IMG/VR virus record: IMGVR_UViG_3300042090_003221
Location: 32,001 to 96,000 of that record
Length of the DNA stretch: 64,000 nucleotides
Source of the DNA: a virus
Direction: 5' to 3' (one strand)
Shown here: in pieces, positions 10,414-28,104 of the stretch
Numbering within the stretch: the stretch's first letter is position 1
Layout of the letters: each line of letters begins with the position of its first letter
Made by a program: the position numbers and the translations under genes
The notes under the pieces: model-generated
Told to the model about the DNA's origin: nothing
The model's input: the letters and a program-made list of their open reading frames with translations, nothing else
Databases searched by the model: none

Positions 10414-10443
10414 TTGACACGTTAGGACTTTTTGTCCTAATCT
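10414..10443 (+). promoter_or_regulatory. Array promoter P1 with operator TTAGGAC-TTTTT-GTCCTAA
   Basis: TTGACA (10414) -18 nt- TAATCT; perfect 7-bp inverted repeat 10422-10440. Confidence 0.85.
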
Positions 10444-10490
10444 GTGTTTTGCGGGGTTGAGACGTTCTCCCCCGGGCCGGAGATAGGAAC

Positions 10491-10724
10491 ATGAGGACTG
10501 AACGGATCGCGGACCGCGCCGTGGCGTTCGCCAACAACGTCCGGAAGCTCAATCGCTTCCTCGTTTCGGACCGCGTCACCGACGAGCTGTACGGGTTCAG
10601 GCGCTTCGTCTTGGATGAGCGGAATCTGCGGAGCTACTACGAGCGCCACGAGCCGATCGCGGAATGGCGCGACTTCGAGACCTTCCGGGTCGTGATCGAG
10701 CGGCGCATCGAGTGCGTCGCGTAA
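10491..10724 (+). CDS. Hypothetical protein (P1 operon)
   Basis: RBS AGGA, first gene after P1. Confidence 0.7.
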
Positions 10725-10725
10725 C

Positions 10726-10750
10726 CAGCCCGCGCCGCTGCGGCGGCGCT
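10726..10750 (+). repeat. Intergenic GC hairpin repeat, copy 1
   Basis: CAGCCCGCGCCGC-TGCG-GCGGCGCT; near-identical to 14116-14140. Confidence 0.6.
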
Positions 10751-10773
10751 ATTCCCAGAGGATCGACCCGACG

Positions 10774-10947
10774 ATGCGCCAACCGACGATTTACGAAGCG
10801 CTCAAGGCCCGCCTGGGCCGCGAGCCCAGCAACGCCGAGCTGAAGGCCGACGTTCAGCGAATTCTGCAAGAGGCGTCCGACGTGGCGCTCGTCGCCGCGG
10901 CCGAAGCCGGGCGGCTACCTCACCAGCGAAAGGGAAAACGGAGATGA
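10774..10947 (+). CDS. Small hypothetical protein (57 aa)
   Basis: MRQPTIYEALKARLGREPSNAELK..; ATGA overlap with next gene. Confidence 0.65.
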   Translation: MRQPTIYEALKARLGREPSNAELKADVQRILQEASDVALVAAAEAGRLPHQRKGKRR

Positions 10948-11144
10948 AACCCGAAATCTTCGCAGTTATTTGGTGCGATTTCGTTCCGCTGTCTCTGCCG
11001 TATCCCGGCGCCGGCGAAGCCGTCGCGGCGGCGCAAGCGATGCGCGCCAAAGCCGGGAAGAACGGCGTCACGCTTCAACACCTTCGCGCGGTCCGCTTGG
11101 ACGCGGCGAACAAGCTTCACACTCTTTGGCAACCGGAGAACTAA
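10944..11144 (+). CDS. Hypothetical protein
   Basis: Coupled ORF in P1 operon. Confidence 0.6.
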   Translation: MKPEIFAVIWCDFVPLSLPYPGAGEAVAAAQAMRAKAGKNGVTLQHLRAVRLDAANKLHTLWQPEN

Positions 11145-11147
11145 CAG

Positions 11148-11390
11148 ATGACGACGGGCTTTTACTGCACCGTGAAGCGCGGCGAGAAGACCGCATGGCT
11201 GCTCGGCCCGTTCGCCGAGCACGAGAAGGCGAAAGAATGGGCGTTCGCCGCGTCATGCAAGGCGAGCGATATCGACCCGCGCGTCGCCTTCGACCCCTAT
11301 GGGACGGCGGCGATCACCCGCGAGGGCGTCGAGATCGCCGAGCTGCCGAAGGGCAAACTCAATCACCTTTTCCCGAAGCTTTTCAACTAG
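11148..11390 (+). CDS. Hypothetical protein
   Basis: GGAG RBS; tight packing. Confidence 0.7.
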   Translation: MTTGFYCTVKRGEKTAWLLGPFAEHEKAKEWAFAASCKASDIDPRVAFDPYGTAAITREGVEIAELPKGKLNHLFPKLFN

Positions 11391-11399
11391 GAGGCGTGC

Positions 11400-11897
11400 A
11401 TGGCCGAGGCCGCGAAGCCCAGGATACGGGTCCGATATTCTTCGGTCGACGGGTACGGCAAGACCGACTCGTTTTGCGCGATCGAAGGCGCCCGCAAATT
11501 CGCCTTCCACCACGTCGGCAAGCATGCCGAGTTCGGTACGGACTACGCCGTGAGCTGTGACGGCGTCGGCAAAATCAGGGTCGAGGGCTGCACGCTGGCC
11601 GAGCTGTTCGGCCGCGTCGAGCCCGAGGAACCGACCGACCTCGAGCTCGAGATCGCCGAATTCGGCGACGGTCAGGCCGTGTGGGAAAGCGGCTACGCGC
11701 AAATGTGCGGAATGCCCGCCAAGCGGCTCTTCAACACGAAGGAAGACGACGCCCGCCGCGCCGCGGAACATGCGGCCTGGATGGCGGTCGAGCGCGACAG
11801 CAACGGCCAGCCGGTCCACCGCTCGCCCGGCTGCACATGCAGCGCGATGCAGTTGGCTCTCGTCGGGTGCGAATGCGAAGCCGACGGCCCGTTCTGA
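11400..11897 (+). CDS. Hypothetical protein, paralog of 12360..12779
   Basis: VRYSSVDG..GARKFA..YAVSCDGVGKIRVEGCTLAELF. Confidence 0.75.
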   Translation: MAEAAKPRIRVRYSSVDGYGKTDSFCAIEGARKFAFHHVGKHAEFGTDYAVSCDGVGKIRVEGCTLAELFGRVEPEEPTDLELEIAEFGDGQAVWESGYAQMCGMPAKRLFNTKEDDARRAAEHAAWMAVERDSNGQPVHRSPGCTCSAMQLALVGCECEADGPF

Positions 11898-11925
11898 CCG
11901 TGGCGGTTTGTCGCGTGTTCTGCGC

Positions 11926-11955
11926 TTGACTTATTAGGACAAAAAGTCCTAATCT
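11926..11955 (+). promoter_or_regulatory. Array promoter P2 with operator TTAGGAC-AAAAA-GTCCTAA
   Basis: TTGACT -18 nt- TAATCT; palindrome 11934-11952. Confidence 0.85.
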
Positions 11956-12002
11956 AGCTCTGCGGGGCGGAGTGGTTCGCCCCCGGACCGGGAGTTCCCG
12001 AG

Positions 12003-12086
12003 ATGACCGCGTTTTTCGAGACCGCCGCTTGGTTCTTCGTCTTCGGCATGCTCGCCCGCGAATATCTGACCGGCAACGTGCGGTAA
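12003..12086 (+). CDS. 27-aa hydrophobic peptide
   Basis: GGGAG RBS; MTAFFETAAWFFVFGMLAREYLTGNVR*. Confidence 0.5.
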   Translation: MTAFFETAAWFFVFGMLAREYLTGNVR

Positions 12087-12098
12087 CAGGAGGTCGCG

Positions 12099-12347
12099 AT
12101 GGCTTACGAGATCGTCAAGGGCGCCGGAAAGACCATGTGGCTGATCGAGGCCGCCGCCGGCGAGGGTTACATGCGCTTCTATTCGAAGCGGGAGGCGCAG
12201 GCCTGGATCGACCGGGCGCTGAAGTCCGAAGCCAAGGACGCCGAATTCGAGGTCTACCGCCGCGCTCGCCGGCTCGAAAACGCCCACGAGTATCTCGCTC
12301 GCCGCGCCGTGCGCACCGCGCGCCCCGTTCAGCTCGAATTGTTCTGA
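12099..12347 (+). CDS. Hypothetical protein
   Basis: AGGAGG RBS. Confidence 0.75.
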   Translation: MAYEIVKGAGKTMWLIEAAAGEGYMRFYSKREAQAWIDRALKSEAKDAEFEVYRRARRLENAHEYLARRAVRTARPVQLELF

Positions 12348-12359
12348 GGAGCCCCGCCC

Positions 12360-12779
12360 ATGCTGACCGTTCGCTACAGCGCCGTTGATGGCGCCCAGAT
12401 CACCCGGAAGTTCAAGACGCCCGAGGGAGCCCGCAAGTTCGCGGTTCGCTACGTCGGCGAGACGCCGGAATTTGGCTCGCGCTACGCGGTCAGCTTCGAC
12501 GGCGTCGGCAAGGTGACCGTCGAGGGCTGCACGGTCGCCGAGCTGTTCGCCGGACCCGTAAAACCCGAAATGGTTCCGCTGCACAGCGAGGACTGCGACG
12601 CGCCGACCGAATACGCGCTCAAGAGCGAGTGCGAAGAGATCGTGGTCGACGCGGACAGCGACGAGTGGGGCACTCACCTTCATTACGGCTGGGCTCGCAA
12701 GACCGATCTCGCGCGCTGGAAGGCTGAGCACGAGGCCCGCCTCGCCGCCGACCTCTACGCCGACGACATACCGTTCTGA
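12360..12779 (+). CDS. Hypothetical protein, paralog of 11400..11897
   Basis: VRYSAVDG..GARKFA..YAVSFDGVGKVTVEGCTVAELF. Confidence 0.75.
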   Translation: MLTVRYSAVDGAQITRKFKTPEGARKFAVRYVGETPEFGSRYAVSFDGVGKVTVEGCTVAELFAGPVKPEMVPLHSEDCDAPTEYALKSECEEIVVDADSDEWGTHLHYGWARKTDLARWKAEHEARLAADLYADDIPF

Positions 12780-13191
12780 AGCTGAAAAGGACCTCGGCCG
12801 CGAAGGCGCAAAGGTCCCTCGCAAGCTAAGTCAGGTTTTCGAAACTGCGTCAAGAAACTTTGCGCCCCAACCATGAGGAACCTGATCATGATCAGCAAGA
12901 TACAGAGAGAGGCGCTCGACGACGAGCGCGCAATCGAGGCGTGGAACGAGCGCCGTGCGCTGGGGCAGCCGCTGTGAGTCGCGCACCAAGGCGCCCGAGC
13001 GACGATGCCCTCCGCACCGCGGCGGAGTGGCTCGATGTCAACGAAGGTGATGAAGGGGAGGGGGACGACTGCCGAGCGGTCGCCGACTGGCTTCGCCGGC
13101 AAATCGAAGAGGCCCGGGTCAGGAAGATCGCGCGCGAGACGGGCTTCCCGGTCAAGGTTGTGCGCAAGCTGCTTGCGGAGGACGAAGGCCC

Positions 13192-13512
13192 ATGACCTTC
13201 GACGACGCCTTCCGCGAGATCGGCCGCCGGAGCCTGCCCGGCGGCGGCAAGACAATGGGCGCCGACGAGATCGCGTTCCGAGGCCGCCCGTTCGGTCGCT
13301 GGCTGTCCGCGGTCTCGCGTGTGCGCCTGCGCGACCCGCGCGAGAGCTACATGACGAACGCCGCGCACAGGATCCGCGACTCCAAGGTCGGCGGGGCCGG
13401 CTATTGGGTCGACCTGCGCGTCGCCGGCGACGTCACCGACGACGAGCTCGCCGAGATCCGCGCCCTTGCCCAGGCCGAAGACGCCCGCCCGGTCCGCGTC
13501 CGCCGCGCATGA
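13192..13512 (+). CDS. Hypothetical protein
   Basis: ATGA overlap with upstream ORF. Confidence 0.6.
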   Translation: MTFDDAFREIGRRSLPGGGKTMGADEIAFRGRPFGRWLSAVSRVRLRDPRESYMTNAAHRIRDSKVGGAGYWVDLRVAGDVTDDELAEIRALAQAEDARPVRVRRA

Positions 13513-13550
13513 ATTTTCGCACGCTGCGACAAAAAGCCCGACTTTCCCTC

Positions 13551-13580
13551 TTGACCATTAGGACAAAATGTCCTAATTCT
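13551..13580 (+). promoter_or_regulatory. Array promoter P3 with operator TTAGGAC-AAAAT-GTCCTAA
   Basis: TTGACC -17 nt- TAATTC; palindrome 13558-13576. Confidence 0.85.
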
Positions 13581-13603
13581 GTTTCCGGAGAGAGGAACCT
13601 GAG

Positions 13604-14113
13604 ATGACCAAGCACTATTCCGTCACCGAGACCGCCAAGCTCATCCGCGCCGCGCTCAAGGAAGCCTTTCCGGAGACCAAGTTCTCCGTCCGGTCTTCGA
13701 GCTATTCCATGGGCGCGTCGATCGACGTCTCTTGGACTGACGGCCCGATCAGCGCCCAGGTCGATCTGATCGTGAAGGGCTTCGCCGGCGCTTCCTTCGA
13801 CGGGATGCAGGATCTCAAGAGCCACCACAGCTCGATGCTGAACGGCGAAAAGGTCAGCTTCGGCGCCGACTACGTCCACACCAGCCGCGAGGTTTCCAAG
13901 GCCAAGGTCGCCGCCATCGCCGCGCTGCTCGAGGCCAAGGGTCGAGACCACTGGCTGACCATTTGCGTCCAGGCCGGTCATCCGTTCCCGACCCGCGCCG
14001 TCCAGCGCCACGACAACGCCCAGGACGTGGCGCGCTCGATCCTCCAGCACGTCGCTGACGCCAAATTCGAGGGCCGCAAGGCCTCCGCCGTCGCCGAGCG
14101 GCTCGCCGCCTGA
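13604..14113 (+). CDS. LPD29-like (large polyvalent protein-associated domain) protein
   Basis: TAKLIRAALKEAFPETKFSVRSSSYSMGASIDVSWTDGP..FDGMQD signature. Confidence 0.8.
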   Translation: MTKHYSVTETAKLIRAALKEAFPETKFSVRSSSYSMGASIDVSWTDGPISAQVDLIVKGFAGASFDGMQDLKSHHSSMLNGEKVSFGADYVHTSREVSKAKVAAIAALLEAKGRDHWLTICVQAGHPFPTRAVQRHDNAQDVARSILQHVADAKFEGRKASAVAERLAA

Positions 14114-14115
14114 CA

Positions 14116-14140
14116 CAGCCCGCGCCGCGCCAGCGGCGCT
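14116..14140 (+). repeat. Intergenic GC hairpin repeat, copy 2
   Basis: CAGCCCGCGCCGC-GCCA-GCGGCGCT. Confidence 0.6.
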
Positions 14141-14158
14141 CACCCGAGAGCCTCCGCC

Positions 14159-14374
14159 ATGATCAAGCCGACCGCCGAAGACATCGCCGCCCAGATCCGC
14201 GCCAATCCCGACCTGCGCCGCCGCGTCGCCTCCGCGCTCGCCGAGACCGCCGCCTACGTCGAAAAGGAGGGGCGCCGCTCCGCTGACCTCCGCCCCGCGG
14301 ACGTCACCAAAATATTCGAGTTCTACAAGGCGCACGCCGAGAAGCTGCGCACCGCGCTCGATCTCGCCGCCTGA
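14159..14374 (+). CDS. Hypothetical protein
   Basis: ORF flanked by hairpin repeats. Confidence 0.7.
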   Translation: MIKPTAEDIAAQIRANPDLRRRVASALAETAAYVEKEGRRSADLRPADVTKIFEFYKAHAEKLRTALDLAA

Positions 14375-14382
14375 CATTCCCC

Positions 14383-14401
14383 GCCCCGCGCGAGCGGGGC
14401 T
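14383..14401 (+). repeat. Intergenic GC hairpin repeat, copy 3 (compensatory change)
   Basis: GCCCCGC-GCGA-GCGGGGCT. Confidence 0.55.
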
Positions 14402-14420
14402 CATCCGAGGAACGCGGACC

Positions 14421-14597
14421 ATGCCCAGAGACAAAAGCGACGTGCGCACCGACATAAAGCGCGAGAACGCGGCGCGGAAGCGGCTGCTCGATCGCATAGT
14501 GCTGGCGAAGCAAAACTTGGCCCTATGCAACGGGCGTTTGGCGTCGCTGAAGCAAGAGCTGGCGAATGCGCCGGAGCCTCCGAAATACTTCTATTGA
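14421..14597 (+). CDS. Hypothetical protein
   Basis: GAGGA RBS; 58 aa. Confidence 0.5.
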   Translation: MPRDKSDVRTDIKRENAARKRLLDRIVLAKQNLALCNGRLASLKQELANAPEPPKYFY

Positions 14598-14605
14598 GGT
14601 CGACC

Positions 14606-14845
14606 ATGCACAACCCCGCCCCATGCAAGCGCCGCAAAGGCCTCTATCTCCGCTACAGCGCGAAGAATTGGTCCGACGAATTCGTGTGCTGCGCGTGCGG
14701 CAAGGCGCGCAGGTTCAGCCTCAATTATCTCGGCTTGCGCCGCGTGCCCATGTGCGACGGCGAAAGCATCAAGGCGGGCGAGGCGCTGGAATGGGAAGCA
14801 TGGCGAGCGCTCACCGACCAAGCCAATCGAAAGGAAACCGCCTGA
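14606..14845 (+). CDS. Small Cys-containing hypothetical protein
   Basis: GAGG RBS; CCACG motif. Confidence 0.6.
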   Translation: MHNPAPCKRRKGLYLRYSAKNWSDEFVCCACGKARRFSLNYLGLRRVPMCDGESIKAGEALEWEAWRALTDQANRKETA

Positions 14846-15066
14846 TGCGCGGCATGAACCTTTCAGCCGTCTTCCGTCAGGGCACGGGCAAGCGCTACGA
14901 GCAGCGCCCGCCGGCCAATTGCGTCGCCGCGCGCCGCGCCTGGGACCACTTCTCGACGCTCGGCGAGATCGAGTGGCTTCAGTTGCTCGACGGCTATTGG
15001 GGCGCGCAGCTCCGCGGCGAGCGCGACGTCACCGAGATCGAGGCGATCGAGTTTCGCCGTTACTAA
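14845..15066 (+). CDS. Hypothetical protein
   Basis: TGATG overlap. Confidence 0.6.
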   Translation: MRGMNLSAVFRQGTGKRYEQRPPANCVAARRAWDHFSTLGEIEWLQLLDGYWGAQLRGERDVTEIEAIEFRRY

Positions 15067-15079
15067 AAGGAGACGCATC

Positions 15080-15280
15080 ATGCACAACTACGGTTCAACC
15101 CCTTCCGACTTTCGCGTCGGCCAGCGCGTCGAGATCTCCCCGCACTTCGATCTGTGGATGAGGGGCGCCCGGTGCGGCGCCGTCGTCAAGATCGGCCGCG
15201 AGCGCGTCCATGTCCGCCTCGATCTCTTGCCGGGCCGCGCGCTCCGCTTCTCGGCGACTGACCTAATCGACCGGAGCTGA
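15080..15280 (+). CDS. Small SH3/KOW-like hypothetical protein
   Basis: FRVGQRVE..GAVVKIGRERVHVRLD; AAGGAG RBS. Confidence 0.65.
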   Translation: MHNYGSTPSDFRVGQRVEISPHFDLWMRGARCGAVVKIGRERVHVRLDLLPGRALRFSATDLIDRS

Positions 15281-15284
15281 CGCC

Positions 15285-15710
15285 ATGACGACCATCGACC
15301 TGATCGACAACGCGATTCACACACTGGAGAAGGTCGCCCACGACCTGACGGCGCTGCATAATCTGCGCGCCACAGATCTGGACGCGGAAGCCTTCGAGGC
15401 GAAGCTGAAGGGCGGCGCTCCGCGAGACAGCCTCGAATGGATGACGGACACGGCCACGAGGCTCGCCGAGGTCGACGCCACAATCGCCATCTTGCGCAAG
15501 GGCGTCTCCTATCGCCCGATCGAGACAGCGCCCGTCGACGAGTGCGTGATCCTCGCCACGACCGGCGGCTGCGTCGGCGAGGCCGTCTATGGCGAGAACG
15601 CCGAGGATCCGACGTGGCGCTGGATCCACGCCGACCAGCCGCTGCATCCCAACTTGAAGCCGCTCGGCTGGATGCCGCTGCCGCCGGAGATCGAAACCCC
15701 CGCAACCTGA
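15285..15710 (+). CDS. Hypothetical protein with DUF551-like C-terminus
   Basis: YRPIETAP...WMPLPP. Confidence 0.65.
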   Translation: MTTIDLIDNAIHTLEKVAHDLTALHNLRATDLDAEAFEAKLKGGAPRDSLEWMTDTATRLAEVDATIAILRKGVSYRPIETAPVDECVILATTGGCVGEAVYGENAEDPTWRWIHADQPLHPNLKPLGWMPLPPEIETPAT

Positions 15711-15726
15711 CCCAGGAGCCCGAGAG

Positions 15727-16005
15727 ATGCTCACCAAGGCCGAACACAACCGTCTCGTGAAGTGGGAGACGCGCGTCAACGAGATCGTCGAGCAGCTCCG
15801 CGCGCTCGTCGAGGCGAAGCGCGGGGCGATCGAGGCGCGCCGCGAGAAACACGACGCCCGGTCCGAGAAGTGGCTCGAGAGCGAGAAGGGGCTGGAGGCG
15901 ACCGAGAAGCTCGAGGCCGACGAAAGCCGCCTCGCCGAGCTCGACCAATGCGCCGACGACCTCGAGAACGCGATCAGCACCTTGCCGACGGAAGAGGAGG
16001 AATGA
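15727..16005 (+). CDS. Acidic coiled-coil hypothetical protein
   Basis: AGGAG RBS. Confidence 0.7.
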   Translation: MLTKAEHNRLVKWETRVNEIVEQLRALVEAKRGAIEARREKHDARSEKWLESEKGLEATEKLEADESRLAELDQCADDLENAISTLPTEEEE

Positions 16006-16043
16006 CCGCGACAGCGAGCCGCACGAGGCGGCTCGGTTGTTGT

Positions 16044-16073
16044 TTGACACGATAGGACTTTTTGTCCTATCGT
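16044..16073 (+). promoter_or_regulatory. Array promoter P4 with operator ACGATAGGAC-TTTTT-GTCCTATCGT
   Basis: TTGACA -18 nt- TATCGT; 10-bp arms. Confidence 0.85.
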
Positions 16074-16094
16074 AGGCGCGAAGGGATTTTGCAG

Positions 16095-16757
16095 ATGACG
16101 CACCCGTTCACAGTCTCCGGCCTTGGCGAGGCGCCGTTCAAGCTCGTCGCCGTGGCGCAGATCCCGCCGATCTCGCTCGCGGAATCGAACCCCGCGGCCT
16201 ACCAGCGCGGAATCGCCATGCTCCCGCCCGGTTGCGGGACGTGCAAGCATTGCGGCATGGCGATCATGCTTAATTTCATCGTTGAATCGGCGGAAGGCCG
16301 CCGGTCCGCGATCGGATGCGACTGCATCCGCAAGCTCGGCCACGTCGACAAGCCGCTCGTCAAGGCCGTTGACGAGGCCGCCCGCAAGCTGGCGCGCGAG
16401 AAGCGCCAAGCGGCCGCCGCCGTAAAGCGAGAGGCCAGGGCGGCCGCGTGGCGCGCCGAGAGGGCGCAATGGGAGATCGACAACGCCGAGCGGCTCGCGC
16501 GGGAGAAGGCCGAGCGCGAGGCGGCCGCCGCGGCGCTCGTCGCCCGGGCGCAGCGGTTCGCCTTCATGCTCCCGGCTCTGCGGAGCGCGGAAAGCTCATG
16601 GTGCAGCGAGATCGCCGACGCGATCGAGGCGGGGCGCCCGCCGACCGGCCGCGCCGTCGAGATCCTCCGCGACATTTACGGGCGCCGGTTCGGCCGGAAG
16701 GGCTCGGCGAAGTTCGAGGCGGCCGCCGCGCGGTTCGACGAGACGGTCTCCGCCTGA
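16095..16757 (+). CDS. Putative Zn-binding hypothetical protein
   Basis: CGTCKHCG..IGCDC, then coiled coil. Confidence 0.7.
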   Translation: MTHPFTVSGLGEAPFKLVAVAQIPPISLAESNPAAYQRGIAMLPPGCGTCKHCGMAIMLNFIVESAEGRRSAIGCDCIRKLGHVDKPLVKAVDEAARKLAREKRQAAAAVKREARAAAWRAERAQWEIDNAERLAREKAEREAAAAALVARAQRFAFMLPALRSAESSWCSEIADAIEAGRPPTGRAVEILRDIYGRRFGRKGSAKFEAAAARFDETVSA

Positions 16758-16804
16758 CACAATCCTCGTCGGCTCACGGGGTCGGCATGATCAAGGAAAA
16801 CGCC

Positions 16805-17011
16805 ATGGCAAAGACATTCAAGCTCCACTGGATTCGCGCCGACGGTCAGGGATCGCTCCCGATGGGCGCGTTCCCTTCACGCACCGCGGCGGAAGCCGCC
16901 ATCCCTGCCGCGAAAACCGAGATGCTCGATCAATGCGCCGTCGGCGAAGGGCACGAGGCAGGGATCGAGGCCGGACGGTTCGAGGTCAACGAAGTCGAGG
17001 AGTCCCAATGA
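16805..17011 (+). CDS. Hypothetical protein
   Basis: AAGGA RBS. Confidence 0.6.
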   Translation: MAKTFKLHWIRADGQGSLPMGAFPSRTAAEAAIPAAKTEMLDQCAVGEGHEAGIEAGRFEVNEVEESQ

Positions 17012-17208
17012 CCGACCAAATGCTCGCCGCCCTTGTCGGCGCGATCTCCGGCATCTCGATCGGCGTGTTCTGCGCGGCGACCGGCTATTCCTTCGGATAC
17101 CGCCACGGGATCCTCGCCGGTTGGACGGCGGGTTTCAAAGCGCAGCGCGCGCGGCTCCGGGCGGAGGGCTTCGTCGTGACGGGGCCGATTCCGAAGGCTC
17201 CGGAGTGA
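17008..17208 (+). CDS. Small membrane protein
   Basis: N-terminal TM helix; ATGA overlap. Confidence 0.6.
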   Translation: MTDQMLAALVGAISGISIGVFCAATGYSFGYRHGILAGWTAGFKAQRARLRAEGFVVTGPIPKAPE

Positions 17209-17266
17209 TCTACCGAGGCGCAATGTCGCGGCCCTGATTTAGGGCGCCGGAGCGGCTCAGCTCGAC

Positions 17267-17294
17267 TTGACATTAGGACAAAAGGTCCTAATGT
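17267..17294 (+). promoter_or_regulatory. Array promoter P5 with operator ACATTAGGAC-AAAAG-GTCCTAATGT
   Basis: TTGACA -16 nt- TAATGT; 10-bp arms. Confidence 0.85.
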
Positions 17295-17315
17295 AAGGGC
17301 GAGGAGAGTTTCGCG

Positions 17316-17558
17316 ATGACCAAGCTTCAGGCCTTGCTAGACGAATCCAACGCCGCCGCCAACGGTTCCGTCGCGTATCTTGCCGGGAACCTGATCGAAG
17401 AGGCGGAAGACAACGCCAATCAGACGGCGTTCATCGAAAAGGCCGTTCCTGTCGAGGAACGCGACCGCATGGCCGAAGCGAGCCTCGTTGATCTTCTCGC
17501 CTACTGCAAGGAACCCGAAATCTTGGCGTGGTTCGCCCAGCGTGGGATCGTCGCGTGA
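17316..17558 (+). CDS. Small acidic hypothetical protein
   Basis: GAGGAG RBS, first gene after P5. Confidence 0.75.
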   Translation: MTKLQALLDESNAAANGSVAYLAGNLIEEAEDNANQTAFIEKAVPVEERDRMAEASLVDLLAYCKEPEILAWFAQRGIVA

Positions 17559-17797
17559 TGCCCGCCACCGCCGAGCAGGTCTTCGCCGTGATCAAGAACA
17601 ACGGCGCCGTGCCGTTCCGCCAGCAGCCGACCGAAAAGGCGCTGCGCTACTACGCCGCCCTGATCGTCAAGAGCGGCGCCCGGTTCGCGGCCGACCAGCA
17701 CGCGCGGGACGCTTGGACCGGAATCACGAATTGGGCGCTGTCCAAGAACATCGCCCGGCTCGAGGCCGAAATCGCCAGAAAGGGAGCCCAGGCATGA
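17558..17797 (+). CDS. Hypothetical protein
   Basis: TGATG overlap. Confidence 0.65.
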   Translation: MPATAEQVFAVIKNNGAVPFRQQPTEKALRYYAALIVKSGARFAADQHARDAWTGITNWALSKNIARLEAEIARKGAQA

Positions 17798-18039: not shown

Positions 18040-18059
18040 CCTCGGAGGTACAAATCTGA

Positions 18060-20298: not shown

Positions 20299-20310
20299 GG
20301 CGGGCGAAAA

Positions 20311-21121: not shown

Positions 21122-21152
21122 GCAGGTTCCTACCGAAGAAAAGGAGACTGAA

Positions 21153-21377
21153 ATGCAATTCAAGATCACGAACTACTGCGACCTCGACGGGGTGCCCGCC
21201 GTAGTCGCGACGCTGGACACGCCGAAGGGACTCGGAACCTACTGCTTCGAATACGTCGAGGGCCGGTGGCGGGAGCCGGAAGACAACGGCGCCGACGTCA
21301 TGAGCAAGTCCCGGGTCGTGACCCAGGACGTCTTCGAGCGCATGTTCCCTGACGTCGGCCTCCCGACGGCGCCGTAA
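21153..21377 (+). CDS. Small protein, putative immunity to the alarmone synthetase
   Basis: AAGGAG RBS; stop is 1 nt from the stop of the convergent synthetase gene; function inferred. Confidence 0.6.
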   Translation: MQFKITNYCDLDGVPAVVATLDTPKGLGTYCFEYVEGRWREPEDNGADVMSKSRVVTQDVFERMFPDVGLPTAP

Positions 21378-21378
21378 A

Positions 21379-24300
21379 TCAGGCGACGTTCGGTCGGAAG
21401 ATCGAATGCCAAGCCGGATCGAGCTTGTCCTGAACGCCCTTGTAAAGCGCGCTCATCTTGTTGGACAGCTCGGTCCGGGCGACCGGATCCTTTGACTTCT
21501 GCCATTCCTGATACATATCGTGGCCGCCTTGCTTTTCCTTGGCGTCGAGCATGCCGGGCGCCCACATTTGGACCTCGCCGATCTGGCCGCTCTTGAAGCG
21601 CACCATCACCTTGCGGTCGAAATAGCCCTCTGGCGTCTTCGTCCAGCCCTCGTCGGCGACTTCGAAGTGACGCGCGAGCTGGCGCACCACCTTGTCGCTC
21701 TGGTCGGGCATCGGGGTGTCGAAGCCGCCGCGCACCGCGTCGTTGACCTCCTGAACGGTCTTGCCGCGCTCGAGCTTCTCCATGATGCGATCGGTCTTCT
21801 TGACGCCCGGATCCTTCCACTTGAGCCCGATGTCCTGGGCGGCCGCGGCGCAGACGTCGGCGAGCGCCTTCTGATTTTCGGGCGACATCGCGATGAGCTT
21901 GTTGACGTCCGACGGCGCGGACTTGCGCCAGAGGTTCTTGCGCTCCGACGCCCATTCGGGGCCGTGCGCCTTCAGGCCGGGGCGGTAGGGGCGCGCCTCG
22001 GCGACCGCGGGCGCCGCAGGAGCCGCAGGAGCTGCAGGAGCTGCAGCGGGTTTTGCGGCCGCTGGCGCGGCGGGCTTGGCCGCCTGGGCGGGGGCGGGCT
22101 TTGCCGCGGCCGTTGGCGTCGGCTTCGCGGCGGGGCCGCCAGCGGGCTTCCCTACGGCTTTGGACACGTCAGCCTTCGAGGGCATGGGCTGGTAGCCGGA
22201 ATGGCCGGTGAAAATCATGGGGCGGCCCTTGGCGTCTTTCGGCGGCGTGATGGCCTTTTCGCCGCCCTTGGCCTTCGACGCGGGCTTGGCCTCCGACTTG
22301 CCGCCCTTGGCCGGCTTCGCTTTCGCGCCGCCGCCGCCGGATCCGAACTGCCCGGCGTTGCCCGGCTGGCCGCGCTTGTGCTTGCCTTCGTCCCATTTGC
22401 CGGCATCGAGCGCGAGGGCGCGCAGGCCGCGGCGGAGCGGGTCGGCGTCCATCGCCGGCGCCGGGCAGTCGCGCGCAGGCGCACGCGAGGGCTTGGCGGC
22501 CGCGGCGAGCTTGCGCAGGCCGGCGGCGATAGGGCAGGCGTCCATAGCGGCGTCCTTGGCTTTGGGGCGGGCTGCAGGCTTATTTTCTATCGGCGAGACG
22601 TTGTATTCAGCGCCGCCGCGGGCGAATCCTTGCTTCTCGCGCTCGGTCGGGACGTAGGGCTTGCCGGTGCTCGCGTCGATCGGGCCTCCGCCAGATTTAG
22701 GGGAGGCCGCTCCGAATTTAGCCAGTGTTCCCTCGATCTGGCGCTGCAGGTCCGGGCTCTTGCCGTGAACGTGGCCGAGCGCTTGCTGAAGCGCGTCAAT
22801 GGTCGCCTTGCGGTCGCCCTTGGCGTTAAACTCGCGCGCCGCGTTGATCGCTGTGTGAGCCGCGACCTCGTGCTGCGGCAAAGGCTTGTCGAGATCGCTC
22901 TCGGCGGGCTTGGCGGGGGAGGGGGAGGCCGCAGCGAGCTTTTCCGGATCGCCACGGCTAAGCCGATCAACAATACCGTGCATGCCGGCGTTCTTCAGCG
23001 CCTCAATCGAGCCGTGCTGCTTCAGGGCCTCGTAGTCTTTGTCGGTCGGCGCTGGCAAATTCGGCGCGCCGGTGATTTGCTGGCGGCCGAGCGACCCCTC
23101 CTTGTTCTGCATGCGTTGGATATCGGCCCACTCGTGCCCGAAGATCTTCCCGCCGTCGTGGTGATCTTTCGGCGGCGTAGCCGGCTTACGCGCTGTGGCG
23201 GGAGCCTTGAACTCGGCGGGCTTGGCGGCGGTGCTGCGGTTCGCGCGCGACCACTCTTGTACCGCGTCAACTTGGCTGCGGCCCTTGGCGCGTTCCTGAC
23301 GGACGTAGTCTTGCACGCTCATGGACGTCGGCGAACCGCCCGCGGTAGCCTCGGGCTTGGCCGCAGGTTCCTTGGGGTCCTGCGACCCGACCGCCTGCGT
23401 CTTGCGCAGCTGGTGACCGCGCTCGCCGCCGGCGCCCTCCGGGGCGGCTTCGAAGGTGTGCTCGCCGTTCGACCACTGCGGCAACCGGCTGTGTTCGACC
23501 GGGTTGAAGCCGTTTGCCTTCATGTGCGCGTCGAGCTTGGCGAAATGGTCCTTGTCGGAGAAGGAGGCTTGCGACTTGTGGCTCTCGATCGCGCCGCCTT
23601 CGCCCGCGACCCTGCGGTAGCCGAGGCCGCCGAGCTTCAGGCCGGCGCCCTTGCCCTCAGCCGGCTTGCCCTTGGCCGACTGTGAGAACTTCGCGGCCCA
23701 GGCGACGTCTGGATTTCCGGCCGGTTCTTGAGCCGGGGCGGCGTTGCCGGACGCGCCGGCCGCCTCCTTCGGCGGGTCGACCTTCTGGACCTCCCACTTG
23801 CCGCTGCCCGATCGCTTGTCCGCGTCGCGCTCGGCCGCGGCTTTGTTCACGCTCCAGCCGACGACGTGACCCGCCGGCTGCTCGCCACCTTGGCTGACGA
23901 CGGCGTAAAGCGGCTGAGGCTTCGCGCCGCGCTCGGCTTGGCCTGCCCAGAACTTGCGCATCAGGTCGTTGGGTTTAGCCGGCACGCCAGTGCTGGCGCT
24001 GGCGGGCTTGGCGGCTTTGGCGGCGCCCTTGGCCAGGGCGGGGTCGTCGCTGCCGCGCATCTGCTCGTCGAGCAAGGCCTTCTTGTTCTTCAGCGTGGCG
24101 TAGCTCTCGCCGCCGAGCTTTTCGATCTCGGCGTTGGCCTTCGCGTAGTCGCTGAAGTGCTTGTCGCCCTTCGCGCGCGCGGCCCGCGTCGGGCTTCTGA
24201 TCGCGGCCTCATAGGCGCTGTAGGCCTCATGGGCACGGCGCGTTGCGTTTGCGAGATCCTTATCCACGTTGCGCCCGCCCGCGCGCATGGCCTCTTTCTC

Positions 24301-25005
24301 GGCGTTGCGGGCGGCGACGAACTCCTGTTCCAGGGCCTTCATTTCCGGCCCGTTCATCTTCTCGTCGTGGCGCTTGCCGTTCGCGCGCATCGCCTCTTCG
24401 TGCATCTTCTCGGCGGCGGCGACGTCTTTCGTCCGCGTCATGTGCTCGTGCGCTTTGGCGTAAGCCGCCTTGTCGGCCTCGTCGCGCTCCTTGAAGTGCT
24501 TGGCGGAGAGCTCGGAGATCGCGTTCTTGATCTCGTGCGAGGGGCGGGGCGCCTTCGGCTTCGGCTTGTCGCTCAGATGCTCGGAGCCCGGGCCGGAGAA
24601 CGCGGCGTGCGCGCTCGTGCGCGAGTTCGCGCGGCCCTTGCCGGCGCCGCGCGCCTCGCCGATCGGCTTCCCGTTGAACTTGCCGCCCATGCCGCCCTTG
24701 ATCTCGCCGTTCTCGCCGATCAGGACCGGTGTCCCGGGGCCGTTCGCGTTCGGGTGGACGGTGATCCACTTGTCGGCATCCATCGCGAGCCGCGCGAGGC
24801 CGCGCCGCACCGCTGTATCAAGCGCCATCGTTCCGTCGCCCGCCATCTCTTCCCCCGCGTCATCGTTGTCCGGATAATCGTCCCAGCCGCCGGTCGCGGT
24901 GAGCATCTTGTCGGTGTCGCCGGCGTCCGGGTTGCTGAACTCTTCCTCGGAGATCTCCGGCAGCTCGTAATTCGGGTCTTTCGGGACCGGCATGAGCTTA
25001 CGCAT
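21379..25005 (-). CDS. Large putative virion cargo polyprotein with C-terminal RelA/SpoT-type synthetase domain
   Basis: C-term GVKKTDRIMEK..NDAVRG..EGYFD..GEVQMW..AKEKQGGHDMY; repeated AMD/ALD modules; AKP-rich linkers. Confidence 0.8.
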   Translation of the reverse strand: MRKLMPVPKDPNYELPEISEEEFSNPDAGDTDKMLTATGGWDDYPDNDDAGEEMAGDGTMALDTAVRRGLARLAMDADKWITVHPNANGPGTPVLIGENGEIKGGMGGKFNGKPIGEARGAGKGRANSRTSAHAAFSGPGSEHLSDKPKPKAPRPSHEIKNAISELSAKHFKERDEADKAAYAKAHEHMTRTKDVAAAEKMHEEAMRANGKRHDEKMNGPEMKALEQEFVAARNAEKEAMRAGGRNVDKDLANATRRAHEAYSAYEAAIRSPTRAARAKGDKHFSDYAKANAEIEKLGGESYATLKNKKALLDEQMRGSDDPALAKGAAKAAKPASASTGVPAKPNDLMRKFWAGQAERGAKPQPLYAVVSQGGEQPAGHVVGWSVNKAAAERDADKRSGSGKWEVQKVDPPKEAAGASGNAAPAQEPAGNPDVAWAAKFSQSAKGKPAEGKGAGLKLGGLGYRRVAGEGGAIESHKSQASFSDKDHFAKLDAHMKANGFNPVEHSRLPQWSNGEHTFEAAPEGAGGERGHQLRKTQAVGSQDPKEPAAKPEATAGGSPTSMSVQDYVRQERAKGRSQVDAVQEWSRANRSTAAKPAEFKAPATARKPATPPKDHHDGGKIFGHEWADIQRMQNKEGSLGRQQITGAPNLPAPTDKDYEALKQHGSIEALKNAGMHGIVDRLSRGDPEKLAAASPSPAKPAESDLDKPLPQHEVAAHTAINAAREFNAKGDRKATIDALQQALGHVHGKSPDLQRQIEGTLAKFGAASPKSGGGPIDASTGKPYVPTEREKQGFARGGAEYNVSPIENKPAARPKAKDAAMDACPIAAGLRKLAAAAKPSRAPARDCPAPAMDADPLRRGLRALALDAGKWDEGKHKRGQPGNAGQFGSGGGGAKAKPAKGGKSEAKPASKAKGGEKAITPPKDAKGRPMIFTGHSGYQPMPSKADVSKAVGKPAGGPAAKPTPTAAAKPAPAQAAKPAAPAAAKPAAAPAAPAAPAAPAVAEARPYRPGLKAHGPEWASERKNLWRKSAPSDVNKLIAMSPENQKALADVCAAAAQDIGLKWKDPGVKKTDRIMEKLERGKTVQEVNDAVRGGFDTPMPDQSDKVVRQLARHFEVADEGWTKTPEGYFDRKVMVRFKSGQIGEVQMWAPGMLDAKEKQGGHDMYQEWQKSKDPVARTELSNKMSALYKGVQDKLDPAWHSIFRPNVA

Positions 25006-26611
25006 GGTCGCGCCCCTTGTGATCGAACAGCCAGTCGACATGATCTTCGAGCTCTTTCGGCAACGTGCCGCGCTTGTATTCCGGCGACGTTACCAGCGCG
25101 GCGAGCTCCGCGTCGGTTTCTTTGATGTTCGTCGTCGCGTATTCACTGATATTCTCGCGGATCCACTTCTGCCGCGTCGTGTAGTCGATATTCAGCTTTT
25201 GCAGCACGCCCATAAGCCGGTCGGCTGACCGAACGCTCGATCGTAGGCCAAGGGCGTGCGCGAGTTCATGAACAATAGTCGCGCGCGCTTGGTCTTTGCT
25301 CGATGCGCTGACGGACCAATTCGCCTTTCCCGCAGCGATGCGCGCGTCGTTGGCTTCGGCTTGCCCTTGATTGAATTCGCCCCGCTTCGACGGGCTGATC
25401 GAAAAATACCCGACATCACCCTTGCCGGGCTCATTCCTGTACCATGCATGGCCGCAGGACTTGCCCGTCGAGCCCGCCGCCAAGACGACATGAGCCTTCG
25501 ACAGCGCCTTCTTGACGTCGAAGCCGTCGGCTTCCAACTTCGTCAGCGCGTCATTCACTTGCGAGACGATCTCCCGCATGCCCTTCGCCGAGGCGCCGGA
25601 CTGCGTGATATCGATCGGGGTGTGCCCCTTTATGCGGTAGCCCGGGTCGCTTCGCTTGGCCTCAATGATCTTATTGTATTGCTCACGCTTGGCCTTGCCA
25701 TCTTCGCCGTCCTTATCCGGGTGTTTATACCACTCGGAGAACGCCTTCTTGTCGTCGCCGTGCTTAACGCCGTTGATGAAACCGAGGCCGAAGCGCTCTT
25801 TCATGTAGTCGTGAATTTCTTTTGGCGTATCTTTGGCAAACGATTTTCCGCCCGTCGATTCAGCCTTTTTCTTAGTCTTGGGCTGATCCTTTTTGGCTTC
25901 TTTTTCGAGGCGCTTAATTTCGCTTTTGTGTTTATTGTAACCAAAAGCGTGGTTGTTCATTTCATTTCGGCGGGTCTTCGCCCAATCCTTCCACGACAAA
26001 TAAGCCGCATGGTGCGCGGCCATCGCCTTGCGGTGTTCGTCGAGCGTTTTGGCGTTCTCGCTGAGTTTGTTGGCCTCATCCGACAGATGGGCCTTCTTGA
26101 CCCTCTCGAACTCGTACGCTTCCTTGCTGCCGTAGGGGTGCGGGTTCTTGGCGCGCGGATCGAACGGCGGCGCTTCCGGCGGCTTCGGCGCTTCGGCGGG
26201 CTTCGGAAGCGCGAGCCGCTTCTCCGGTCCAGGGCCGAGCCAAATCGCCGGCGAGTGCTGGCTGGTCGAGCCGGACTTCGCCGCGCTCTTGCTGCTCGGA
26301 TTGACGAACTTGCCGTTGAGCTTGCCGCCGGCGCCGCCGATGATCTGCCCTGCGCCGTTGATCAGCGCGGGCTGACCCTTGTTGTCGGGGCCGTTGGGAT
26401 GGATCGTGATCCAGTGCTCGGCGTCCATCGCGAGCCCGCGCCAGCCCGCGGCGTCGTGCGCCGCGCCGCCGAAGCCCGTGAGATCGACGATCTCGGACGT
26501 CCCGCGGAAGACGACGCCGGCGGCGATCTTCGGCGCGGCGTCGGCGGCAAGGCGCGGCTTTCCCAGCGTAGCGGCGAAAGATCGCCAACCGCTTGCGGAT
26601 GCGTCGGTCAT
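24998..26611 (-). CDS. Putative virion cargo protein with C-terminal zincin-like metallopeptidase
   Basis: HELAH..ISEYATTNIKETDAE; N-term GWRSFAA..LAMDAEHWITIH. Confidence 0.75.
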   Translation of the reverse strand: MTDASASGWRSFAATLGKPRLAADAAPKIAAGVVFRGTSEIVDLTGFGGAAHDAAGWRGLAMDAEHWITIHPNGPDNKGQPALINGAGQIIGGAGGKLNGKFVNPSSKSAAKSGSTSQHSPAIWLGPGPEKRLALPKPAEAPKPPEAPPFDPRAKNPHPYGSKEAYEFERVKKAHLSDEANKLSENAKTLDEHRKAMAAHHAAYLSWKDWAKTRRNEMNNHAFGYNKHKSEIKRLEKEAKKDQPKTKKKAESTGGKSFAKDTPKEIHDYMKERFGLGFINGVKHGDDKKAFSEWYKHPDKDGEDGKAKREQYNKIIEAKRSDPGYRIKGHTPIDITQSGASAKGMREIVSQVNDALTKLEADGFDVKKALSKAHVVLAAGSTGKSCGHAWYRNEPGKGDVGYFSISPSKRGEFNQGQAEANDARIAAGKANWSVSASSKDQARATIVHELAHALGLRSSVRSADRLMGVLQKLNIDYTTRQKWIRENISEYATTNIKETDAELAALVTSPEYKRGTLPKELEDHVDWLFDHKGRDHA

Positions 26612-26729
26612 GTGTTGAGCTTCCCCTCGAATGATCAAAACTTCGGCCGATGCGTGGCAGAGGCGAAAAACGCCTTTGACTGCCGAGAGTCTGTGTGTGA
26701 TGCTCCAATCAACCAGGGAGCGTTATGTG

Positions 26730-26948
26730 ATGAAATATACCAAACAAGAATTGGACGAAGCAGCTATCTACGACTTAGCGATCGATGCCCGCACTTCGCG
26801 GGAGCAGGCAGAGAACGGCCCGTATTTTCCAGAAATCGGCATTACCCGCGAAAGCTGCATTGCCTACGCTGAAAAGTGCGAGCGCTCCATTGAGAGATAC
26901 AAAGACGGTGGGGCGCACGCGTTTGTCTTGGGCAAAGAATCGCTTTAG
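26730..26948 (+). CDS. Small antisense protein (possible immunity/moron)
   Basis: GGGAG RBS, TTGACT at 26676; converges on 26945..27715. Confidence 0.6.
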   Translation: MKYTKQELDEAAIYDLAIDARTSREQAENGPYFPEIGITRESCIAYAEKCERSIERYKDGGAHAFVLGKESL

Positions 26949-27715
26949 GTCTTCCGGGCCGTCTTAATCAGGTCCGACCACATGGCGTCAGCTAATTTCT
27001 GCGCGTGGTCGGAAAACATGCCGGCAGAGGATTTCTTGGTTTCATACGCGACGAAGCTTTCGGCCATGAACTCGAAAATGTTCTCCGCGCCATACGCTGA
27101 GGTCTGATTGTTAACAATGTTCAACGGACCTTTCCCACTATAACCCAGGTGCCCGTAGACGATTTTCCAGAATTTCTTGAAGCCTATCTTGTCTTCTAGT
27201 TTCGACGCGAGCAGGTGCCCGAATTCATGCGTCATGACGCCGCCGACGGAAGGGTCATTCATCATTCCGTCCCATTCCTTGGCGTATTTTTCTAGGCCTT
27301 CTTTTGTCCATGCTTTAGGACTCAGATTTATGTTGTTTCCGGAGCGATAAGCCAGCGCTCCCTCGCGTTCGTTTTCTTCTACCTTCGGTGACCCCGCCTC
27401 CGGATATTTTTTCGAAAGCTCGGCGACCCTGGAGTGCGCGACGGTCTTATGGTCATTCTTTCCCCGGACCTCGGAAATGTTTTTGCCCGTAAATTTTCCG
27501 CCTAGACCGCCTTTGACTTCGCCGTTAGCGCCGAGCAATACAGGGGATCCGGGGCCTTCTTTGTTGCCGTGAACTGTGATCCACTTCTCGCCAGCATCCA
27601 TTGCCAGGGCGCGCCATCCTGCCCGCGCCGCCCTCACCTTGCCGTCCTGCGCAAGGCGCGGCTTCGCTACAGCGGCGGCAAAGCTTCGCCAACCGCTCGC
27701 AAGTGCGTCGGGCAT
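26945..27715 (-). CDS. Putative virion cargo protein with zincin-like metallopeptidase
   Basis: HEFGH..SAYGAENIFEFMAESF; N-term GWRSFAA..LAMDAGEKWITVH. Confidence 0.75.
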   Translation of the reverse strand: MPDALASGWRSFAAAVAKPRLAQDGKVRAARAGWRALAMDAGEKWITVHGNKEGPGSPVLLGANGEVKGGLGGKFTGKNISEVRGKNDHKTVAHSRVAELSKKYPEAGSPKVEENEREGALAYRSGNNINLSPKAWTKEGLEKYAKEWDGMMNDPSVGGVMTHEFGHLLASKLEDKIGFKKFWKIVYGHLGYSGKGPLNIVNNQTSAYGAENIFEFMAESFVAYETKKSSAGMFSDHAQKLADAMWSDLIKTARKT

Positions 27716-27750
27716 GGTGTAGAGGTTCCCTGTTTCAGGAGGCGGGTCTG

Positions 27751-28104
27751 ATGATCGACGCGGCGACGCTTGCCGAGGCGCTCCAAATTCCGGAGCGGTT
27801 CTTGACGGCGACGGATTCGGCGCTTGGCGATTTTGTCGAGGCGCTCAATCTCGCTTCAGAGGCCGTGACTGTGGACACGGGGCGCGGCGCGCGCGCAATA
27901 CTCCGTCCCGACGGGAGCCCTGCCGAAGCCGGCGACTTCCGTCAAGGGGAGCGCATTGAGCTCCGCGAATATCAAGTAGGGAATATGGTCGCGAGCTCGA
28001 CCGCCGGCCCGGTCTTCTGGAACGACGGCAGCTTCTTTATCGACGGCGGCGGCAACCGGAAACAGCGCCGGGCGGCGCGGTCTTCGCGCGCTGGTACGCG
28101 ATGA
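27751..28104 (+). CDS. Antisense hypothetical protein
   Basis: AGGAGG RBS. Confidence 0.6.
   Translation: MIDAATLAEALQIPERFLTATDSALGDFVEALNLASEAVTVDTGRGARAILRPDGSPAEAGDFRQGERIELREYQVGNMVASSTAGPVFWNDGSFFIDGGGNRKQRRAARSSRAGTR

Follow-up and report, generated by a model that had tools for sequence, protein, structure and literature searches.

Module-tagged candidate cargo proteins and a six-promoter, single-operator gene island within the head operon of a wetland provirus

Phages T4 and P1 provide known cases of enzymes that an N-terminal signal directs into the prohead and that are delivered together with the DNA, namely the T4 internal proteins with their capsid-targeting sequence and the P1 Dar proteins. 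Among the MuF polymorphic toxins, 20% contain a metallopeptidase and RelA-like domains are frequent (PMC5576092). In the Apk2-Aph1 system of temperate phages, a Tis1-like binder and a hydrolase neutralize (p)ppApp synthetase toxins that are fused to MuF (PMC10083569, PMC12226406). The Apk2/Aph1 and MuF-toxin papers (PMC10083569, PMC5576092) left open whether MuF-associated and polyvalent phage toxins are packaged and injected at all, and what directs them to the head. A precedent exists in gp47 of phi24B, a polyvalent protein of 2,811 residues that was found in particles by virion proteomics (bioRxiv 10.64898/2026.04.10.717836). Here we analyze a stretch of 64,000 nucleotides (the window; all positions below refer to it), which corresponds to bases 32001-96000 of the 115.8-kb IMG/VR provirus record IMGVR_UViG_3300042090_003221, rated complete and assembled from a wetland metagenome. 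In this provirus, ~18 kb with cargo-type genes on the head-gene strand and a gene island on the opposite strand lie between the genes for the MuF minor head protein and the DUF2213 prohead protease.

We read this region, together with the mechanism outlined below, as a three-part mosaic at a junction, prone to recombination, within a portal_3/MuF/DUF2213-type head module, and put the probability of this reading at about 0.55. All head genes are on the minus strand of the window, whose DNA has ~65% GC, and for this reason genes were called by third-position GC. The MuF protein (28385-29254, minus strand; PF04233, E = 1.5e-17; phrog_324, E = 1e-57) is a stand-alone protein of 289 residues that ends with its MuF domain (residues 173-282) and has no toxin extension; the head operon resumes with DUF2213 (9784-10404, minus strand; PF09979, E = 2.7e-51; phrog_2229, E = 3e-87). 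These two genes abut in most related loci showing both (e.g., L088, L094, L100, L109, and L110), and the portal, MuF, DUF2213, and capsid genes are normally contiguous across 78 viral loci bearing the N-terminal module described below. Thus the ~18-kb gap represents an insertion, in agreement with an earlier reading of the same DNA from its letters alone (the sequence-only reading), which had described the head operon as split between MuF and the prohead protease. The junction is a hot spot, additional genes being found there also in L145, L132, L125, L118, and L122, all of them on the late strand.

On the late strand, the insertion encodes three proteins, g256 (26945-27715), g546 (24998-26611), and g1220 (21379-25005), and the common N-terminal module noticed in them earlier is confirmed as an element of ~55 residues. 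The plus strand carries an 11-kb island (10491-21377), located between g1220 and DUF2213, with ~26 mostly small orphan genes in six transcription units (P1-P6), the last of which holds an Aph1-like hydrolase (f1), a helix-turn-helix (HTH) protein (f2), and a 74-residue orphan (f3). The sequence-only reading had joined cargo and island into one system and named their co-occurrence in relatives as a test. This test failed: an antisense array, an Aph1-like gene, f2, f3, and LPD29 are all absent from the 78 module loci and from 31 viral loci with the Apk-like domain, found here at the C-terminus of g1220. Judged from the cargo side, by such gene neighborhoods, cargo and island appear not to be one system.

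An integrated system would mean that cargo and island evolved as one unit, with the injected effectors acting first and the island serving as an immediate-early anti-defence and antidote regulon that fires in a cell free of the repressor and is shut off later, the lysogen keeping all the antidotes on. The island does adjoin the cargo genes, its last operon holds the synthetase antidote, it includes two polyvalent-protein domains as solo genes (LPD29 and a DUF4942 methyltransferase), and its operator geometry fits Aca-like autorepression. However, besides the absences just listed, relatives carry module-tagged cargo without the island, the extra genes at the junction in the five other loci are confined to the late strand, the promoter/operator/HTH unit is found elsewhere without head cargo (L055 and L027), the candidate peptidase partners lie outside the regulon, and base composition differs between g256 and g546 (~60% GC) and the island (~65%). 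The small neighbors of g256 and g546 likewise lie ~5% below the island, and this difference suggests separate acquisitions of cargo and island. We consider an integrated system quite improbable and retain the mosaic reading.

The module, preceded by a leader, has the consensus A-x-D-x-x-KWITVHPNG...PVLI...GGMGGKFNGK and matches phrog_25904 and the N-terminus of phrog_62. A profile built from the three window copies recovered at least 211 proteins carrying it. Among the best 120 of these proteins, 104 of 126 copies are within the first 120 residues; the remaining copies are directly behind a portal, next to DUF2213, or repeated ahead of successive effector domains in polyproteins (P0152, P0153, P0154, P0155, P0157, and P0197). 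Among the domains that accompany it are ADP-ribosyltransferase toxin, Zeta toxin, NUDIX, glutamine deamidase, and ddrB-ParB. In all 78 viral loci, the module gene shares its strand with the head genes and is located inside or beside the portal, MuF, DUF2213, and major capsid protein genes. It occurs in five forms: as a fusion either with the portal or with DUF2213, and as a free gene that is placed between MuF or portal and DUF2213, behind the capsid gene, or ahead of the terminase or portal gene. The tryptophan of the module is preceded by the motif L-A-x-D-(A/D)-(D/E)-K, whose aspartate at position -4 is kept in 103 of 128 copies, and this conserved acidic motif could be a protease site. In an AlphaFold 2 (AF2) model of moderate confidence (predicted local distance difference test, pLDDT, 66), the module folds into a helix, a three-stranded meander, and a glycine loop. 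It is not in Pfam as scanned, its motif string gave no match in the searchable literature, and it is not mentioned in the MuF-toxin paper (PMC5576092).

Since many phages have the module on one polypeptide with a portal or prohead-protease domain, it would place the proteins that carry it inside the head, and comparative evidence strongly supports g256, g546, and g1220 as putative head-internal cargo. The cargo-type nature attributed to these proteins by the sequence-only reading gains support both from the fusions of the module behind the portal and to DUF2213 and from fusions of the Apk-like family to portal, MuF, and DUF2213. More tentatively, we consider it possible that the WITVHPNG...GGMGGKFNGK module with its L-A-x-D motif serves portal_3/MuF/DUF2213-type phages as a portable tag for head loading, maturation cleavage, or both. 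In that case any enzyme behind the module, whether free, on a portal or protease, or within a polyprotein, would be encapsidated and released for delivery, the module would be the non-covalent or processable counterpart of the MuF fusion, and a general sequence rule for recognizing injected phage effectors would be at hand.

Alternatively, as has been proposed for MuF polymorphic toxins, these proteins may not be injected and may instead be released at lysis or exported against neighboring bacteria, with the immunity genes protecting lysogens. The literature explicitly leaves the role of MuF toxins open (PMC5576092, PMC10083569), immunity genes beside toxins fit interbacterial antagonism, and exported alarmone synthetases exist, one of which (8vx3) is the top fold match of the g1220 domain. 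Nevertheless, we give this explanation very little credence, given the covalent links of the module to portal and prohead-protease domains; also, no signal peptide was noticed in g256, g546, or g1220 by eye, with no predictor run.

Within the putative cargo, g256 consists of the leader, the module (nucleotides 27431-27640), and a small zincin-like domain with the motif HEFGH. The g546 reading frame reaches 26638 and probably starts at 26611; its leader and module (26264-26473) are followed by a linker and a metallopeptidase-like domain with the motif HELAH. The HExxH motifs behind the earlier proposal of two peptidases are present in both proteins, and a zincin-like fold is suggested by weak Pfam matches and by structural look-alikes in the ESM Atlas. 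In particular, g546 matches Reprolysin_3 (E = 0.0049), Matrixin, and Astacin, all below threshold, and the atlas look-alikes of the two proteins, at template-modelling (TM) scores of 0.5-0.7, belong to Peptidase_Mx/Mx1, M48, M10, and MuF-fused clusters; the structure of g256 resembles phage M48/Peptidase_Mx1-type clusters and a cluster that is 92% Phage_Mu_F (TM 0.62-0.71). Homologs of g546 with 55-56% identity are encoded in L145 and L141, and portal-module-g546C fusions in L109 and L132. For g256, a word-indexed homolog search among near lengths returned the query alone, and a scan of viral contigs gave four short motif-level matches only.

Candidate partners of the two peptidase-like proteins are found next to their genes. 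Behind the free g546-like gene, a translationally coupled acidic open reading frame (ORF) of 50-63 residues is present in six out of six relatives. It is homologous to residues 17-65 of the g1220 frame, and the acidic small protein thus appears to be fused in frame to the g1220 module in this provirus. Two small plus-strand ORFs inside the cargo block, both orphans, extend the gene list of the sequence-only reading: s72 (26730-26948; 72 residues; ribosome-binding site AGGGAG), which converges on g256 and overlaps its stop, and s117 (27751-28104; 117 residues; ribosome-binding site AGGAGG), located between g256 and an ORF of 75 residues (g75). The first of these is a candidate partner or inhibitor of g256. 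No partner for either peptidase was found in units P1-P5, and, by position and homology, the acidic peptide coupled to g546 in relatives and s72 seem likelier peptidase partners than the island genes.

The g1220 frame extends to 25041, with a probable start at 24993 or 25005. It encodes an acidic leader (residues ~17-65), the module (nucleotides 24622-24831), an Ala/Pro/Lys-rich linker of ~880 residues, and a Tas1/Apk-like synthetase domain formed by the last 200 residues (21382-21984). By sequence, this domain matches Tas1 weakly (E = 0.57). An exhaustive HMMER search collected 627 representatives of the Apk-like family, and the AF2 model of the g1220 domain, made with 27 aligned family members (pLDDT 96.6; predicted TM score 0.90), has the exported alarmone synthetase 8vx3 and Tas1 (6ox6_A) as its top Foldseek matches (E from 4e-8 to 1e-7; TM 0.64-0.68; probability 1.0), with SAS1, SAS2, and Rel ranking below them. 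The synthetase motifs K..EK, D..R, GY, E.Q, and H..Y are seen at residues 1080-1177 of g1220, and K62, R85, Y121, E137, and Y158 are invariant across 28 family members. The RelA/SpoT-type synthetase that had been recognized at this C-terminus from the letters is therefore confirmed, and the domain is predicted to make (p)ppApp and drain ATP. No Pfam or PHROG match to MuF was found on g1220, MuF being a separate gene, and the ~880-residue middle part has no Pfam match at E up to 5. Inside the linker, at residues ~865-905, a second, degenerate leader motif (RRGLRALALDAGKW) is followed by KHKRGQPGNAGQFG; this segment could be what is left of a second module, or it could serve as a processing site.

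Each of the three putative cargo proteins has one recognizable effector domain. In 31 viral loci the Apk-like domain is part of proteins of 1,100-4,900 residues, and its partners in 50 longer family members are ddrB-ParB (10), portal (9), MuF (5), and DUF2213 (2), as well as ART-PolyVal, Acb1, and NUDIX; judging from these architectures, the Apk-like family is a polyvalent-protein domain. The homologs P0002 and P0003 are 80% and 59% identical to the g1220 domain, respectively. No match was obtained by tblastn of g1220 against 50,697 phage records or by a single-protein scan of viral contigs with the Apk domain. A related gene set is seen in L124-L129 (e.g., L125:2473-12925), phages of 42% GC with three module-tagged genes between portal and DUF2213. 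The same interval holds a separate Apk-domain ORF of 310 residues followed by same-strand ORFs of 110-193 residues, which could be immunity genes; no Aph1-like match was found in these loci.

Unit P6 (20311-21377, plus strand) faces g1220 and starts with a promoter whose operator is imperfect (left arm ACAGGAC). Its first gene, f1 (20376-20822), encodes a single-domain HD protein of ~150 residues similar to the (p)ppApp hydrolase Aph1: phmmer aligns residues 3-142 with 7smg_A (E = 3.6e-14), with LLHDVLEDT falling on the Aph1 HD motif, and the Pfam HD_4 match is under the cut-off (23.1 versus 27.2 bits). This similarity supports the earlier suggestion that the synthetase is confronted with a matching antidote. 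The second gene, f2 (20813-21121), has an HTH_23 domain (E = 5.7e-6), and the third, f3 (21153-21377), ends 1 nucleotide from the g1220 stop. A phmmer comparison of f3 with PDB sequences, including the 6ox6 complex, gave chance Fab matches at E = 1.4 and no similarity to Tis1. In species-representative genomes, Aph1-like genes were found at 80 loci, most of them in Gram-positive lineages, with one adjacent Apk domain and no head genes; since these genes are at most 47% identical and none is accompanied by head genes, this search did not lead to a near relative of the phage.

The HTH protein f2 is likely the binder of the operator, as judged from the recurrence of the same arrangement in unrelated phages. 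Scans assigned f2 to HTH_23 and unnamed phrogs only, with no Aca-named family, and an HTH scan of viral contigs gave one weak locus. A separate set of 78 viral loci was chosen solely for the core operator pattern, and most of these loci hold single chance sites. Four unrelated phage loci of this set (L027, L025, L040, and L055) encode an f2-like HTH protein, and each has an operator upstream, on the strand of the gene, in the same -35/operator/-10 layout; f2-like matches number four in 0.70 Mb of the operator-pattern loci versus none in 2.9 Mb of other loci. The recurrence of this design indicates that promoter, operator, and HTH gene form a portable autoregulatory unit, in support of the earlier notion that all six promoters are under one operator with the HTH protein as putative regulator. 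In L055 (419-8435), two TTGACA+operator promoters nearly identical to P6 accompany an f2-like HTH gene (3966-4289) and a run of small plus-strand genes, and this locus looks like an early-region counterpart of the island.

The six promoters of the island are sigma-70-like, intergenic, and directed along the plus strand (10414, 11926, 13551, 16044, 17267, and 20311). In each of them, a -35 box TTGAC(A/T/C) is followed after 1-3 nucleotides by TTAGGAC-N5-GTCCTAA, the right arm of which enters the -10 box; the operator is thus a 19-bp palindrome over the spacer and the -10 box. Six sites were observed versus 0.67 expected, none of 100 shuffles reached six, and the whole 115.8-kb record holds just these six copies. 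Six opposite-strand promoters with the same operator, the last of them driving an alarmone hydrolase, an HTH gene, and a small gene abutting the synthetase, had been described in the sequence-only reading, and all of this was borne out.

Its further claim that the array carries the antidotes of the effectors was not supported, as only P6 is tied to the cargo and units P1-P5 consist of orphans, an LPD29 protein, and a DUF4942 methyltransferase. Unit P1 (10414-11897), whose promoter/operator is 10 nucleotides from the DUF2213 start codon, and unit P2 (11926-13512) are composed of small orphans. They include a4 (11400-11897) in P1 and b2 (12360-12779) in P2, which are paralogous (phmmer E = 5e-23; 76% identity over 128 nucleotides), indicating that P1 and P2 are partly duplicated. 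Unit P3 (13551-16005) encodes a solo LPD29 protein (13604-14113; PF18847, E = 3.8e-24) and six small orphans, and unit P4 (16044-17208), directly preceded by a terminator-like hairpin (16015-16035), encodes orphans of 220 and 66 residues. Unit P5 (17267-20298) contains three ORFs of ~80 residues, a DUF4942+SAM methyltransferase (18060-19433), a 63-residue ORF, and a 225-residue orphan. Relatives of this methyltransferase are parts of giant phage proteins. A 646-residue methyltransferase related to it (E = 7e-41) is encoded in L121 (1537-4847), on the opposite strand and directly beside a module-g546C cargo gene, and L121 is the sole relative with an island-type gene neighboring cargo. A megablast search with positions 9700-29300 against the 50,697 phage records gave no match.

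Exact matches to parts of the region came from library X3, a wetland metatranscriptome of a different study, whose contigs, identical to the window, give no strand, start, or level; DNA carry-over is possible, and an uncovered stretch is not evidence of silence. Unit P6 is matched by contigs at 20358-20665 and 20784-21603, the latter with a depth of 11.7, the highest in the region, and the methyltransferase gene by a contig at 19124-19460. Other contigs match s72 (26733-26963, depth 10.3) and s117 (27673-27976 and 27988-28138). Taken together, they give a weak hint that the plus-strand protection genes are made in nature. No exact contigs match P1-P4, most of g1220, or MuF, and we draw no inference from this. 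A contig at 25359-25549, within the g546 coding region, could stem from late mRNA or from an antisense transcript, as it carries no strand.

These contigs over P6 and part of the methyltransferase gene, from a natural sample, would also suit a view of the island as a set of prophage morons with functions in lysogenic conversion, superinfection exclusion, or defence, expressed in the lysogen under their own regulator and unrelated to early infection; the Aph1-like protein would then shield the lysogen from (p)ppApp toxins of kin phages or neighbors. A late operon interrupted by a terminator and by self-promoted units on the opposite strand is a layout classic for morons, and the published Aph1 also protects against Tas1 (PMC10083569). 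On the other hand, PADLOC found no defence-system protein in the island apart from generic methyltransferase similarity, and operators over the -10 box of every unit argue for repression and not for constitutive expression. We regard this explanation as unlikely and keep to the mosaic reading, in which moron-type genes are one of several possible contents of the island.

In the mechanism that we infer for the mosaic, the late-strand cassette would encode three cargo proteins for the head interior. All three begin with a short leader and a module that would serve to load them into the prohead, to delimit them for processing, or for both purposes. The cargo would be delivered with the DNA or released at lysis, and its payloads would be a Tas1/Apk-like pyrophosphokinase with presumed toxicity and two peptidases of zincin type, such as MuF toxins carry in fusion with MuF. 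Each payload would have a protection gene beside it. For the synthetase this would be the convergent P6 operon, with f1 degrading (p)ppApp and f3 perhaps, or perhaps not, acting as a binder of the synthetase; for g546, the translationally coupled acidic peptide, here fused to g1220; and for g256, the convergent 72-residue ORF s72. A dimer of f2 on the 19-bp palindrome, over the spacer and the -10 box, would repress all six units. Owing to its imperfect operator, P6 would be leaky in the lysogen and yield some repressor and antidote, with P1-P5 held more tightly, and in a naive cell lacking f2 all six promoters would fire. The island would thereby represent self-regulated genes of early, anti-defence, or moron type, whose last operon captured, or was built around, the antidote and its regulator.

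Several observations weigh against this reading. The absence of a detectable Aph1 from the 31 Apk loci means that neither self-toxicity nor a need for immunity is general. The N-terminal module is present on none of the top 150 Apk-domain homologs. The module itself is without structural or functional precedent, and a fold search with its moderate-confidence model gave no PDB look-alike at E up to 0.001. Among the proposed protection genes, s72, like s117, has no Pfam match at E up to 5, and f3 has neither a homolog among 5.8 billion proteins nor a Pfam match at the same cut-off. Beyond LPD29, the methyltransferase, the a4/b2 pair, and P6, the island genes belong to no Pfam, PHROG, or PADLOC family, and no near relative of the island was found in the phage collections searched. 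Finally, late transcription would have to cross 11 kb of antisense genes to reach DUF2213 and the capsid gene.

The terminase (34271-35902) and the Phage_portal_3 protein (32272-34278; PF06381, E = 6e-77) are followed, all on the minus strand, by a 706-residue ORF without a family match (29851-31971), a 137-residue ORF (g137), MuF, and g75, the last located before g256; neither g75 nor g137 has a Pfam match even at E up to 5. The 706-residue ORF has a third-position GC below that of its neighbors, a Ser/Thr/Gly-rich body, and a stretch resembling a signal peptide from M113, and its weak homolog (E = 3e-9) is beside a module gene in L089. Beyond DUF2213 are a scaffold-like protein of 377 residues and the likely capsid gene. 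DUF2213 (206 residues) and the 377-residue protein are separate ORFs in the same frame (8497-10404, minus strand), the latter matching the C-terminal part of phrog_2229, and their counterparts in L109, L110, L162, and L164 form one protein of ~450 residues. We rejected a single read-through gene in the window, as two stops and ~150 nucleotides of non-coding-looking sequence separate the two ORFs. Elsewhere in the window, a second DNA methyltransferase is encoded at 40177-40941 (minus strand; N6_N4_Mtase, E = 1.4e-27), and the majority of the remaining genes in the interval from 36 to 57 kb match no Pfam family.

Comparison with described systems separates what is shared from what is particular to this locus. 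As in Apk2/Tis1-like/Aph1, a Tas1-like RelA/SpoT homologue toxin domain in a phage head module is found beside a small HD hydrolase, and a further small gene adjoins the toxin gene. The toxin of the window, however, is not MuF-fused but belongs to a 1,200-residue protein, on which it is preceded by a different N-terminal module and a long linker. The hydrolase gene shares an operator-controlled operon of the opposite strand with an HTH gene, and the adjacent 74-residue protein shows no similarity to Tis1. With the MuF polymorphic toxins (PMC5576092) the locus shares the payload repertoire, the place after portal and MuF, and small neighboring ORFs as immunity candidates, whereas its MuF protein is short and stand-alone and its payloads are free-standing and tagged with the WITVHPNG module. 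The Apk-domain family, LPD29, and the methyltransferase are all polyvalent-protein domains (PMC5512222), with homologs embedded in proteins of 1,100-4,900 residues together with portal, MuF, or ddrB-ParB domains. In the window, by contrast, each effector of the payload set has a protein and a module copy of its own, and LPD29 and the methyltransferase are encoded singly on the opposite strand. The putative N-terminal loading and the acidic motif as a possible protease site resemble the T4 internal and P1 Dar proteins, from which the locus differs in having no sequence relation to them and a putative element of ~55 residues in place of a leader of ~10. Similarly, a small HTH protein in a presumably self-repressed operon with palindromic operators overlapping the promoter recalls the Aca autorepressors and ArdK, but here a single regulon of ~26 genes, with six dispersed promoters, is embedded in a head operon.

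The combination had been called unfamiliar by the sequence-only reading. Its core toxin-hydrolase logic had already been published (PMC10083569, PMC12226406), and its two halves do not occur together in the relatives sampled. Known already are the toxin-hydrolase pair, head-delivered polyvalent and MuF toxins, and Aca-like autoregulation. The module, the most novel element of the locus, is a concrete candidate for an addressing or processing signal and a sequence handle for delivered effectors in metagenomes. With the toxin on the late strand and the enzymatic antidote in an autoregulated operon, the two would follow opposite transcriptional programs, and the locus may be a simple natural case of a phage avoiding the poisoning of its own producer cell; the six-promoter, single-operator regulon also offers a compact system for studies of Aca-like control. 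New in relation to the described systems are payloads that are separate from MuF and bear, as their tag, a widespread module absent from Pfam and the searchable literature, an antidote within a six-promoter, single-operator regulon inside the head operon, and a peptidase-coupled acidic peptide fused to the next cargo protein.

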